Origin: Pseudomonadota bacterium
GTDB taxonomy: Bacteria > Pseudomonadota > Alphaproteobacteria > Rhodospirillales > Casp-alpha2
Assembly: GCA_036337015.1 (NCBI GenBank)
Contig: JAYZEZ010000007.1
Location: 553,413-617,412, forward strand
DNA: 64,000 nt
Reading direction: 5' to 3'
The notes beneath the pieces were generated by a model. The model saw only the letters and a program-made list of their open reading frames with translations. It was not told the DNA's origin and did no database searches. A program made the translations under genes and the position numbers. Below, in pieces: positions 61,271 through 64,000 of the stretch. The first letter of the stretch is position 1. Each line of letters begins with the position of its first letter.

Positions 61271-63160
61271 CTATTGTCCTGGTTCGGTAAAACTGGTTTT
61301 TATAGTGCGCATTACTGGATATAAGAAGTAGGTAATCAATCGACGCTTACCTGCACGAATATCCCCATTCAAGAGCATCCCTGGAACTAACGAAAAGTTT
61401 CCTGGAAGGTCTCTTAGCTCATTTGATGCCATTGTGGATCTCGCGCGATAAAAAGTGCCCTTTGAACCATCAAGTCCTGTATCGACCGTATCTTTTGAAA
61501 TAAATGAAATCTCTCCTAAAATCTCCCCATGCTTCTGATACGGCAAAGCATCAAGCTTAACTGAAACCTTTGCCCCAAGCATAAGATTTCCTATGTTTTT
61601 AGGGTCAATGTCGAGTTCTACAGTCAAAGGAACATCTGAAGGAACTAGAGACATGATCGTATCTCCTTCCCTGACAAGGGCGCCAACGAAAAGGTTTTGC
61701 ATATCCATAATTACGCCATCGGCGGGAGCAAGAATTTTAACGTTCTCTTTGCGCCGACGAAGCTTGACCAGATCTTCTTTCATAGAGTCTCTTTCATTTG
61801 AAGACTGAGATAGCTCAATACCAATTTTAGAAAACCAACCACTAACAAAATTCTGCTTATCGGCACGCAAAGATTCAAGTTCACTCTTAAGATTTCTGAC
61901 AGAGCTATTTAACTTACTGTATTCACGTTGAACAGATAAACGAGTGTTTTTCGCCTGTAGCATATTTAAGCGAGATCCAACATTCCTTTTAAAAAGATCT
62001 CTACGTGCGTTTTCTATATCCTTTTGAATTTTAAGCTGTTCTTTTGCCAGCCCAATATCCATTGAAGTCGATGTTAATTTTAACTCAAGACTTTTCATAT
62101 CAAGATTAAAGGATGCAATTTTTGAGGTGTATTCTTTTTGGCGATTTATAAAAACCTTTTCCTGAAGTTGATCTCTAATGGTTTTGGGATCAAAACCTTT
62201 TACTGTATCCATCTCCGCTTCAAGTCTACGGATTTTGGCCTCTAAAAGCCTAAATTCCATTTCTGACCGCTTTAGGTCCGCTTCAGCATAGGTTTCATCA
62301 AGGGTCACTATTACATCACCCTTTTTAACTCTTTGTCCAATTGAAACCTCAATGCTTTCTACAACAGAATTATCTGTAGCTTGCACCTCAATAGTGGGTA
62401 CAGTGGTCGATAATCGACCACGGGCGGAAAGCGTTGTATCAATCACAGAAAAAGATGCCCAAGCTACGAAAGAGCCTAAAAGAAATATGATTGTAAGAAC
62501 GGTGTTTCTTACTATCGGAGGCAAACTACTTTTTTCCGTTGCCACACTTGCTGACTGGTATTCATCAATAATATGTTCCGCATCAGACAATTCTGATGAT
62601 TCAAAAATATTACTAAAACGCCTCCATATTGATCGAAGGGTGTTGGGAATATCTAAACGTCCATTTTCATGACGCTGTAAAATTTTATTACTATCTAAAG
62701 TTTCTTCTATATCTAAAGAATTATCATCTTTAATTTCTTCTTCTTTTTTATCAAAAACACTACCTTCGATATTTTTATTGGTAGTACGCGCATAATTAGC
62801 TAGCCGGTACATCATATTCATTGCAACATCGGGTGACTTTTTTATGTGAGCCATAAAAGCAGTCTCATCAATTTCCCGAACGATGATATCTGTTACAGCT
62901 CTAGCAGAAGCAGAGCGCACAGATTTATCAATGAGAGCCATTTCACCAAAAAGGGTGTTTTCTTTAATGTCTACAAGCTTAATAATTTCCCCTTGAGAAA
63001 TCTTACATATCTCTGCTTCACCAGAAAGAAGCACATAAGCAAATTCACCTACATCACCTTCTTCAAATACAAATTCTCCAGCAGCGAAACTGCGTTCATT
63101 CTGACCGTGACCGCTTTTTTTTGCATTATTTGGATTATTCTGGTTTTCACCCTGTGTCAT
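61271..63160 (-). CDS. HlyD-family type I secretion adaptor with N-terminal cyclic-nucleotide-binding domain
   Basis: aa ~25-135 form a cNMP-binding fold with the phosphate-binding cassette FGEMALIDKSVRSASARA. A single TM segment (VLTIIFLLGSFVAWASFSVI) follows. Then comes the HlyD barrel-sandwich/coiled-coil region, ending in the typical RLITYFLYP tail. Confidence 0.88.
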   Translation of the reverse strand: MTQGENQNNPNNAKKSGHGQNERSFAAGEFVFEEGDVGEFAYVLLSGEAEICKISQGEIIKLVDIKENTLFGEMALIDKSVRSASARAVTDIIVREIDETAFMAHIKKSPDVAMNMMYRLANYARTTNKNIEGSVFDKKEEEIKDDNSLDIEETLDSNKILQRHENGRLDIPNTLRSIWRRFSNIFESSELSDAEHIIDEYQSASVATEKSSLPPIVRNTVLTIIFLLGSFVAWASFSVIDTTLSARGRLSTTVPTIEVQATDNSVVESIEVSIGQRVKKGDVIVTLDETYAEADLKRSEMEFRLLEAKIRRLEAEMDTVKGFDPKTIRDQLQEKVFINRQKEYTSKIASFNLDMKSLELKLTSTSMDIGLAKEQLKIQKDIENARRDLFKRNVGSRLNMLQAKNTRLSVQREYSKLNSSVRNLKSELESLRADKQNFVSGWFSKIGIELSQSSNERDSMKEDLVKLRRRKENVKILAPADGVIMDMQNLFVGALVREGDTIMSLVPSDVPLTVELDIDPKNIGNLMLGAKVSVKLDALPYQKHGEILGEISFISKDTVDTGLDGSKGTFYRARSTMASNELRDLPGNFSLVPGMLLNGDIRAGKRRLITYFLYPVMRTIKTSFTEPGQ

Positions 63161-63165
63161 ACCAA

Positions 63166-64000
63166 TTAAGCAACCTGTTCTTTAGGTGAAGTTGAGAGCT
63201 TGGGATCAACTAGAGCTCTTTCCATTTGATAAAGCCTTTGGTAAAGGCCCTCTTGAGCTACTAATTCATCATGGGCTCCAGATTGAACAACTTTACCTTT
63301 ATCCATAACTAGTATGAGGTCGGAATTTGCAACTTTGGAAACATAATTAGAAATTAGGATTAAGGTTCTTCCGCGATTAATGTCATCCATCCTCTCCCTA
63401 AGTGCAAGCTCACTTTCCATATCAAAGCCAGCAACTGCATCATCTAAAATAAGAATTTTTGGATTACGAATTAATGCCCTTGCTATAGCAATTTTTTGGC
63501 GGATAACCTCGGTAATATTTAAACCACCTTCCTCAAGAAGAGTTTCATATCCGTCAGACATTTGTTCCACATCCTCATGTAAGCCAACCATTTTAGAGGC
63601 CCATAAAACTCTCGCCATTGCAGCGTTTGGAGATGGTTTTAAAATATTTTCCCGTATTGTTGCTTTAAAAAAACTCGAGTCTTGGCTTACCGCAGCTACA
63701 TTTATCCTTAGATGGCCCAAATCTAATGAACGTATGTCTTGATCATCAATAGTAATAGTGCCTTCATCTGCCTTAAGTAATCCTTGAATATGACGTGCTA
63801 AGGTGCTTTGCCCAGAACCTGATTGACCAACAATACCAACTCTTTGTCGAGCCTGAATCTTAAAAGAAACTCTATCTAAAGCTAATGGCCCATCTTCATA
63901 TTTAAAACTCACATCTTTAAACTCTATACTGCCAAATATATCTGTAACCAAGCCTCTGCGAACGCTTTCTCCGCGAGAGTTCATAACAGGGCTTAAGGAA
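63166..64000 (-). CDS. ABC exporter (type I secretion/HlyB-like), C-terminal NBD only; 5' end outside window; catalytic motifs degenerate
   Basis: The frame stays open to the window edge. The NBD fold aligns to HlyB/MsbA, but Walker A is GQSGSGQST, the signature is LNITEV, Walker B is ILILDDA and the H-loop is ISNYVS. The stop lies 5 nt before the HlyD-like start. Confidence 0.85.
   Translation of the reverse strand, partial: SLSPVMNSRGESVRRGLVTDIFGSIEFKDVSFKYEDGPLALDRVSFKIQARQRVGIVGQSGSGQSTLARHIQGLLKADEGTITIDDQDIRSLDLGHLRINVAAVSQDSSFFKATIRENILKPSPNAAMARVLWASKMVGLHEDVEQMSDGYETLLEEGGLNITEVIRQKIAIARALIRNPKILILDDAVAGFDMESELALRERMDDINRGRTLILISNYVSKVANSDLILVMDKGKVVQSGAHDELVAQEGLYQRLYQMERALVDPKLSTSPKEQVA

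Follow-up and report, generated by a model that had tools for sequence, protein, structure and literature searches.

We analysed a stretch of 64,000 nucleotides (the window) from a marine alphaproteobacterium of the Rhodospirillales group Casp-alpha2 (assembly GCA_036337015.1, contig JAYZEZ010000007.1, positions 553,413 to 617,412 of the forward strand). Close to its end, the window carries a gene for an adaptor (membrane fusion protein) of a type I secretion system (T1SS), in which an HlyD-type periplasmic part is joined to a predicted cyclic-nucleotide-binding (cNMP) domain at the cytoplasmic N-terminus. Directly upstream lies the gene for its putative partner, an ATP-binding cassette (ABC) exporter related to HlyB. 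The adaptor gene comprises the following features, which were assigned by profile searches (Pfam, NCBIfam), comparison with solved structures (PDB sequence search, Foldseek), AlphaFold2 (AF2) models and their confidence measure pLDDT, and the ratio of nonsynonymous to synonymous substitution rates (dN/dS):

61271..63160, minus strand: gene for a cNMP-binding HlyD-family type I secretion adaptor, an open reading frame (ORF) of 629 aa (Pfam and NCBIfam)
62759..63097, minus strand: cyclic-nucleotide-binding domain, aa 22-134, predicted beta-barrel plus C-helix (Pfam PF00027, PDB matches, AF2, Foldseek, dN/dS)
62897..62950, minus strand: phosphate-binding cassette FGEMALIDKSVRSASARA, aa 71-88 (residue invariance in a 32-member alignment)
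62519..62758, minus strand: cytoplasmic linker of acidic composition, aa 135-214, largely disordered and with short helices close to the membrane (AF2 pLDDT, composition, dN/dS)
62450..62518, minus strand: single transmembrane helix, aa 215-237 (AF2 helix, hydrophobic stretch PIVRNTVLTIIFLLGSFVAWASFSVI, TIGR01843 match from aa 215)
61271..62449, minus strand: periplasmic HlyD part with lipoyl-like domain, long alpha-helical hairpin and beta-barrel (TIGR01843, Foldseek)

The C-terminal two thirds of the protein match the type_I_hlyD profile TIGR01843 almost from end to end (aa 215-626, model positions 2-421 of 422; 289.8 bits with a cut-off of 208.65 bits), and Pfam also places HlyD-family domains C-terminal of the cNMP domain. 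A full-length AF2 model, for which the alignment of 32 family members served as input, displayed a confident beta-barrel with helices at aa 22-134, the transmembrane helix at aa 215-237 and a confident adaptor body. The model together with Foldseek revealed the layout of TIGR01843 adaptors, that is, membrane anchor, lipoyl-like domain, alpha-hairpin and beta-barrel. The periplasmic part superposed on LipC (5NEN) with a TM-score of 0.84 and an rmsd of 3.3 and on HlyD (5C22) with a TM-score of 0.74, both scores being target-normalised. Between the N-terminal domain and the membrane, pLDDT values below 50 at aa 133-173 and 186-203 predict disorder, and helices were modelled at aa 174-185, 195-201 and 204-210. 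The linker (aa 136-214) contains 19 D/E as opposed to 10 K/R, resulting in an isoelectric point (pI) of 4.5. A first-pass annotation, made by a model that saw only the sequence, had described about 210 cytoplasmic residues with an acidic linker, followed by a transmembrane helix and a normal HlyD region, and this layout is borne out with 214 residues preceding the membrane.

The start codon of the adaptor gene is the ATG at 63160. Upstream of it just seven codons are open, none of them an in-frame start, and the next in-frame Met is M74, which lies within the phosphate-binding cassette. A convergent hydrolase gene is located downstream of the adaptor gene.

The N-terminal domain

The N-terminal domain is recognised by the Pfam profile cNMP_binding (PF00027) at aa 22-107 with an E-value of 3.5e-18 and 65.8 bits, the gathering cut-off being 27.5 bits. 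In a sequence search of the PDB, the first 215 aa of the adaptor matched the solved structures of PKG, PKA-R, Bd1971 and Mtb CRP with E-values down to 5e-15. As Foldseek returned adaptor structures only when the full-length model was used, the N-terminal domain was modelled separately (aa 1-155). In this model, the block-mean pLDDT was 90-96 across aa 21-100, with strands over aa 22-97 and helices at aa 99-108 and 110-140, in agreement with the eight-stranded barrel and the B/C helices that characterise cNMP domains. The best folds were those of Bd1971, Mtb CRP, GlxR and Clr, all of them cAMP-binding domains, at E-values of about 1e-9. The Bd1971 structure 6HQ3 aligned with a target-normalised TM-score of 0.74-0.81 and 31% identity. 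Structures of NtcA also occurred among the fold matches.

In CRP and PKA, the cassette residues G-E...R-S-A hold the ribose 2'-OH and the cyclic phosphate. In an alignment of 32 family members that are 33-100% identical, F71, G72, E73, A75, R82 and A84 show no variation and S83 almost none, and the same invariance was found in a second alignment that was derived from genomic loci. The adaptor domain hence displays the Gly-Glu...Arg-Ser/Thr-Ala cassette of cNMP domains. It shares this cassette and a C-helix with Bd1971, Mtb CRP, GlxR and Clr, the closest proteins in fold and sequence. In these proteins the output is an enzyme or a DNA-binding domain (in Bdellovibrio Bd1971, the cAMP-sensing domain controls an EAL phosphodiesterase), whereas here it is a membrane-anchored secretion adaptor.

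Selection on the adaptor was estimated by comparison with a metagenomic orthologue (locus L016) that has the same gene neighbourhood and an adaptor 85% identical in protein sequence. With dS at about 1 or more, the whole adaptor had a dN/dS of 0.068; by region, the values were 0.032 (cNMP domain), 0.04 (HlyD part) and 0.21 (linker). As judged from these ratios, the N-terminal domain ranks among the most constrained parts of the adaptor and is under strong purifying selection. Because its dN/dS is so low, a translation start downstream of the cNMP domain is excluded; the N-terminus is also conserved across the family. From the sequence comparisons taken together, we conclude that the N-terminal domain is a genuine cNMP fold that is translated and kept under selection. 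The initial claim of a complete fold with an intact phosphate-binding cassette is thus upheld by Pfam, the PDB matches and the combination of AF2 and Foldseek.

The partner ABC gene and the fusion family

Two further features lie between the adaptor gene and the end of the window:

63166..64000, minus strand: 3' part of an HlyB-like ABC exporter gene with C39-like domain, transmembrane domain (TMD) and degenerate nucleotide-binding domain (NBD) (Pfam, alignment with HlyB 7SGR, 24-member motif table)
63161..63165, minus strand: 5-nt spacer (TTGGT) from ABC stop to adaptor start (sequence)

The ABC gene extends beyond the window to about window-equivalent position 65331 and encodes a protein of about 721 aa (full gene L006:2579-4798, minus strand). 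Its stop codon TAA (63166-63168) is followed by TTGGT and the adaptor ATG, in agreement with the distance of 5 nt noted at first reading. The spacing is likewise 5 nt in L016 and 1 nt in Terasakiella, and the two genes overlap in L018 and L021. The 5-nt spacing is consistent with translational coupling. A HIT-family gene and histidine-biosynthesis genes are located upstream of the ABC gene, and the pair stands alone in this genome, with no linked cargo, TolC or cyclase gene.

By Pfam, the ABC protein consists of a weakly matching Peptidase_C39 domain (29.1 bits, cut-off 22), ABC_membrane and ABC_tran. Its nearest solved relative is E. coli HlyB (7SGR, E 1.6e-112). When 20 members were aligned by eye to the C39 consensus, the column expected to hold the catalytic Cys contained S in 17, T in two and G in one, and over the first 150 columns of the family alignment no Cys or His is conserved. 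The C39-like domain alone obtained a single weak match to PDB sequences (3B79, E 0.1). Because of the Pfam match and the lack of conserved Cys or His, we regard the N-terminal domain of the ABC protein as a C39-like domain (CLD) as in HlyB. The polypeptide carries neither a catalytic C39 dyad nor a cNMP domain.

Alignment to HlyB revealed that the NBD of this exporter has lost its catalytic residues. Walker A reads GQSGSGQST with Gln in place of Lys, the LSGGQ signature is replaced by ITEVI, the catalytic Glu of Walker B by Asp, and the His of the H-loop by Asn. With four motifs substituted, the protein lacks the catalytically competent NBD of HlyB-type exporters, as the first-pass annotation had suspected in describing a hydrolysis-impaired partner. 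A table of 24 family members placed these changes in context. None of the 24 has the canonical LSGGQ, the Q-loop Gln is retained in only four and the H-loop His in nine, and the Walker B Glu is kept in about half and exchanged for D, G or N in the others. Loss of the Walker A Lys is confined to this genome and its close relative L016, all other members having retained it. As far as the alignments show, degeneracy of the NBD is a trait of the family and is extreme in this lineage. The NBD nevertheless appears to be under strong constraint, with a dN/dS of about 0.02 relative to L016 (dS being saturated). Rescue by heterodimer formation with a second CLD-type ABC protein was considered and rejected, as none is encoded in this assembly, which is 90% complete.

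The fusion of PF00027 with HlyD domains recurs widely. A word-indexed search yielded about 60 clusters (32-100% identity), including Terasakiella species and Magnetococcales, for which the database annotation is HlyD only. When 1.84 billion representatives were searched exhaustively with a profile, the highest ranks were taken by about 45 clusters (at 50% identity) with the full-length fusion, and ordinary HlyD proteins of 440-490 aa ranked below this block, a pattern suggesting that the fusion family is one coherent clade. A scan of species genomes gave about two dozen full-length loci. Carriers are SAR116, Rhodospirillaceae-type metagenome-assembled genomes, marine single-cell genomes, Magnetovibrio, Nisaea and Magnetococcales; the family is mostly one of marine Alphaproteobacteria and Magnetococcales. 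Loci L040-L044 and L048 looked full-length but were plain HlyD genes beside other ABC genes and were excluded from the family; by Pfam, no cNMP domain was present on the ABC proteins scanned at L040 and L044. An assembly artefact, which had been named as a possible objection to the fusion, was rejected, as the same fusion occurs in independent assemblies comprising complete genomes, single-cell genomes and many metagenomes.

The neighbourhoods of the orthologues were surveyed for linked genes. Wherever a fetched family locus includes upstream DNA (24 loci), the gene immediately before the adaptor gene is the CLD-ABC gene; a cargo-like gene occurs in at least 14 loci, a gene for a TolC-like outer-membrane efflux protein (OEP) in five and a CHASE2 cyclase gene in three. 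Among the genomes searched, the ABC/adaptor gene pair was found in none of 14 of the same genus and none of 10 of the same family; only one other family of the order holds it, resulting in a patchy distribution. A promoter and terminator scan of the sequence gave no usable signal, with 16 promoter-like sites compared to 13.7 expected from shuffled sequence.

Several carriers are magnetotactic (Terasakiella magnetica, Magnetovibrio, Magnetococcales), and in a Magnetococcales locus a gene for the magnetosome protein MamC (L018:3684-4151, minus strand) is situated about 3.5 kb upstream of the cargo-ABC-adaptor-OEP genes. The link to the secretion genes may be coincidental.

Candidate cargo, TolC and cyclase genes

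In at least 14 family loci, the ABC gene is immediately preceded by a gene for an acidic, Pro-rich protein. These proteins have a size of 250-470 aa, no Pfam match and almost no K/R. They contain GDMPPP-type repeats and helical AF..A...G.SPEEA modules, end in ...DVV, ...DAI or ...GMG and have no GG leader, and RTX nonapeptides were not seen in them. The acidic Pro-rich protein is the likely cargo of the ABC/adaptor pair. Cationic stretches block T1SS transport, an effect ascribed to the inside-negative membrane potential (PMC9223453), and in Ehrlichia, acidic proteins with repeats are recognised substrates of a T1SS (PMC3417381).

No cargo gene adjoins the ABC/adaptor pair in this genome (G000). 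A homologue is encoded on contig C5 (C5:203317-204261, minus strand) and was found by tblastn with the cargo proteins of relatives, having been missed by an initial genome-wide composition screen for acidic ORFs. The 314-aa protein has 21% D/E, four K and no R (pI 4.05). Across a 73-aa module it shares 41% identity with a Terasakiella protein (E 3e-11), and its C-terminal end, GDGMG, resembles that of the GMG-type relatives.

Directly downstream of this homologue lies a gene for a 248-aa Lys-rich protein (L019:6442-7188, minus strand, equal to G000:C5:202441-203187) with histone-H1/AlgP-like repeats (KKAVAKA, KVKKKVVSKAP) and no Pfam match; the adjacency of a polycation and a polyanion gene may be meaningful. 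At L020:4776-5682 the cargo gene is split into ORFs of 232 aa and about 73-101 aa, by a frameshift or a metagenome assembly error, and the near-identical cargo gene at L029:3811-4716 is intact (301 aa). On contig C1 (G000:C1:93500-96600, minus strand), a long ORF (over 1000 aa) with a proline-rich shadow ORF opposite to it contains long Ala/Glu-rich and GPEGE/GGPGGPEGAF repeat arrays. Its product may be a large repeat protein that is secreted or located at the cell surface, and might be cargo of the second, canonical T1SS of this genome on C5.

An OEP gene is adjacent to the secretion genes in L018, L021, L022, L023 and L026. In the present genome the only OEP matches are on contigs C1 and C5 and none lies within the window, where, as had been stated at first reading, neither a TolC-like nor a substrate gene is visible. 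Of the two TolC genes, the orphan copy on C1 is more similar to the OEP that accompanies the L026 secretion genes (29% identity, E 1.6e-38, versus 21%) and is the likely TolC of the system. The orphan gene is located between genes for a PopZ-like DUF2497 protein and pcm (L014:5477-8498, minus strand, equal to G000:C1:53476-56497).

A gene for a CHASE2 class III cyclase begins 5-19 nt after the adaptor gene in L025, L026 and L027, and in L032 and L035 a cyclase gene occurs within 5 kb. The most complete arrangement is that of L026, in the order OEP, cargo, ABC, cNMP-adaptor, CHASE2 class III cyclase, standalone cNMP-binding protein and DUF1538, with the cyclase gene starting 6 nt past the adaptor stop. 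Class III cyclases (PF00211) were detected in all nine carrier genomes searched compared to four of 14 controls. Two are encoded in the present genome, both on contig C1, a GAF-GAF-PAS-cyclase and a CHASE2-cyclase, the latter aligning along its entire length with the cassette-linked cyclase of L026 at 39% identity. Both have Lys at the purine-specifying position (DKYMGD/DKFIGD). In class III cyclases, Lys at this position points to ATP as the substrate, which suggests that both are adenylate cyclases.

Some further observations concern these genes. The orphan TolC gene is about 2-4 kb from the convergent pair of GAF-GAF-PAS-cyclase and CHASE2-cyclase genes, and two cyclase genes in a similar convergent arrangement, with ORFs of 782 and 774 aa, are present in the genome of L017. 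At L026:11063-13652, the cassette-linked cyclase gene is followed by genes for a standalone 145-aa cNMP-binding protein and a DUF1538 membrane protein and by a small ORF, the latter two products being 69-71% identical to those of own-genome genes at G000:C1:11976-14085. In L035, DUF1538 is found beside a P-II-like gene; this is possibly a further cNMP-associated module.

Proposed mechanism and alternatives

Type I secretion is usually described as substrate-triggered and as regulated at the level of transcription. We consider it fairly probable that the adaptor belongs to a cAMP/cGMP-gated T1SS of the HlyB/HlyD/TolC class that exports an acidic protein. The first-pass annotation had suggested cAMP/cGMP-gated export, and this proposal gains support from the cyclase genes linked to the adaptor gene in relatives, the most telling of the results, and from the two cyclases of this genome. 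cAMP, or less likely cGMP, would bind to the N-terminal domains of the adaptor oligomer, with the CHASE2-sensor cyclase as the probable source of cAMP. Binding would change the engagement of the cytoplasmic arm of the adaptor with the ABC protein and the cargo, and the messenger would thereby switch export of the Lys/Arg-poor, acidic, Pro-rich protein on or off. A receptor on the adaptor would amount to a direct post-translational switch on a tripartite exporter.

The cytoplasmic arm that bears the sensor is, in HlyD, the element by which binding of the cargo is linked to the recruitment of TolC. A HlyD delta-N45 construct fails in TolC recruitment and HlyB activation (PMC4446572), and the R34EKDE38 motif of HlyD contacts HlyB (bioRxiv 10.1101/2025.05.27.656419). 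The NBD of this lineage is fully substituted yet conserved, and the sensor therefore cannot act via ATP hydrolysis by that NBD. Since the sensor is kept at a dN/dS of 0.03 despite the abolished ATPase site, its target would more probably be assembly, cargo engagement or gating. Speculatively, the N-terminal domains might pair up via the long C-helix, which is the dimerisation element of CRP-type proteins. Pairwise N-terminal domains would fit the 7SGR complex of six HlyD and three HlyB dimers.

Among known systems, the E. coli haemolysin exporter HlyB-HlyD-TolC (7SGR, 8DCK; HlyD 5C21, 5C22) shares with the pair described here the HlyB-type ABC protein, the C39-like domain without catalytic Cys/His, the order of ABC and adaptor genes with coupled starts, and an unlinked TolC. 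The periplasmic part of the adaptor resembles Serratia LipC as well as HlyD. However, the cytoplasmic tail of E. coli HlyD has about 60 residues and no recognisable domain, in contrast to 214 residues with a complete cNMP domain here. The ABC proteins differ from HlyB by the non-canonical signature in all 24 members and by the loss of every catalytic motif in this lineage, and the candidate cargo differs from haemolysin by being acidic and Pro-rich, with almost no K/R and no visible RTX nonapeptides.

A cytoplasmic cNMP-type domain within a machine of the T1SS/PCAT class is known from HetC of Nostoc sp. PCC 7120 and from the cNMP-C39-ABC exporters of the NHLP/Nif11 bacteriocin type (TIGR03796/03797, with TIGR03896 accessory proteins). 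In HetC this domain is required for function (PMC10986499), and cNMP-ABC exporter architectures were also present among the homologues of the N-terminal domain (P0086, P0087, P0093), so that the first-pass annotation was right in stating that some bacteriocin-type ABC exporters have cNMP domains. In the HetC type, the domain is carried by the ABC subunit beside an active C39 peptidase that cleaves GG-leader peptides, and the ligand bound by HetC was ppGpp. In the present system it is the adaptor that carries the domain, the C39 dyad is missing and the candidate cargo has no GG leader; the features that define the HetC/NHLP class (cNMP and active C39 domains on the ABC protein, GG-leader substrate) are absent. 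The first-pass annotation knew of no characterised adaptor with a cNMP domain, and we found no published description of a cyclic-nucleotide domain on a T1SS adaptor either, HetC being the nearest precedent.

Control of T1SS delivery by a second messenger is familiar from LapD/LapG, in which c-di-GMP controls LapA, the substrate of the LapBCE type I system. LapD senses c-di-GMP and acts via a periplasmic protease on cargo already in the outer-membrane channel, and the adaptor is not known to carry a receptor. As for the cargo, the tandem repeat proteins of Ehrlichia are acidic, repeat-rich, non-RTX substrates of an alphaproteobacterial T1SS (PMC3417381). The proteins found here differ from them in having GDMPPP-type repeats and AF..A...G.SPEEA modules and in belonging to free-living marine hosts.

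Several points weigh against a cAMP/cGMP-gated system. The domains of the CRP/FNR superfamily bind many ligands, and the cNMP-type domain of HetC bound ppGpp in vitro and not a cyclic nucleotide (PMC10986499). Ligand binding and gating are predictions for every member of the family. An adjacent cyclase gene occurs in only a minority of loci, and in the present genome the genes for cargo, TolC and cyclase are all unlinked to the pair, so that the partners were assigned by homology to the linked versions elsewhere. The Walker A Lys is missing from the ABC partner, which leaves transport in this lineage without an obvious source of energy. Finally, the absence of the gene pair from congeners indicates that it is dispensable, and it may have been acquired horizontally.

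An alternative reading is that the N-terminal domain is a regulatory sensor of another ligand, such as ppGpp as in HetC, 2-oxoglutarate as in NtcA or some other small molecule. The Kd of the HetC domain for ppGpp is 59 µM (PMC10986499), and NtcA structures are among the fold matches. However, the G-E...R-S-A cassette is invariant, the top matches in sequence and fold are real cNMP binders, and cyclase genes are adjacent or near in three to five loci; we therefore regard a different ligand as unlikely.

A bolder version of the cyclic-nucleotide-gated system is conceivable. The family may comprise ligand-gated, electrophoretic exporters that are opened by a cyclic nucleotide and not driven by ATP hydrolysis. 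The cNMP domains of the adaptor would be the switch, and the ABC protein, with ATP sites that are degenerate across the family and fully dead in this genome, would mainly be a gated conduit. The inside-negative membrane potential would pull the polyanionic, Lys/Arg-poor cargo outward. We put this forward as a speculation of low probability.

That the N-terminal domain has no ligand at all and is a docking or oligomerisation module, for example by dimerising the adaptor via its C-helix or by keeping hold of the cargo or of the C39-like domain, is less probable still. The long C-helix (aa 110-140 in the model) does resemble the CRP dimerisation element, and there is a weak match of 33 bits to the TIGR03896-type cNMP-like accessory proteins of bacteriocin exporters, but for such a role the ligand-contacting residues of the cassette need not stay invariant down to 33% overall identity, and the linkage to cyclase genes would be left unexplained.

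Very improbable, finally, is a decaying or repurposed remnant that no longer serves secretion: all four catalytic NBD motifs are substituted, with the loss of the Walker A Lys unique to this lineage among the 24, no second CLD-type ABC protein exists for a heterodimer, the cargo, TolC and cyclase genes are unlinked and congeners lack the pair, but both genes are intact in two lineages more than one dS apart, dN/dS is 0.02-0.07 including NBD, TMD and cNMP domain, and the cargo homologue, TolC and CHASE2 cyclase have all been kept in the genome.

The proteins of this family are already in databases under generic HlyD names. What is added here is that a fully dead ATPase occurs together with a highly conserved sensor, that the parts are dispersed in the genome and that the distribution within the genus is patchy. 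The lineage represents a natural experiment: the sensor is under very strong selection although the ATPase site of its partner is abolished, which separates the role of the sensor from ATP hydrolysis and draws attention to the energy supply of such a pump. Cultured Terasakiella strains carry the version with intact motifs. The family is concentrated in abundant marine Alphaproteobacteria (SAR116 and Rhodospirillales-type groups) and in Magnetococcales, and together with the unstudied acidic, K/R-poor proteins it may be a lead to a product, hitherto unknown, that ocean bacteria secrete.

A separate observation was made among the histidine-biosynthesis genes upstream of the ABC gene. About 8 kb past the window end, a HisB protein (IGPD domain at aa 112-255) bears an N-terminal Cro/C1-type HTH_3 domain at aa 4-58 (E 2.8e-12; gene at L006:8252-9094, minus strand, equal to G000:C7:622251-623093). 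A DNA-binding domain on a histidine-biosynthesis enzyme is unusual, and the same fusion occurs in the close relative (L016:1361-2194).

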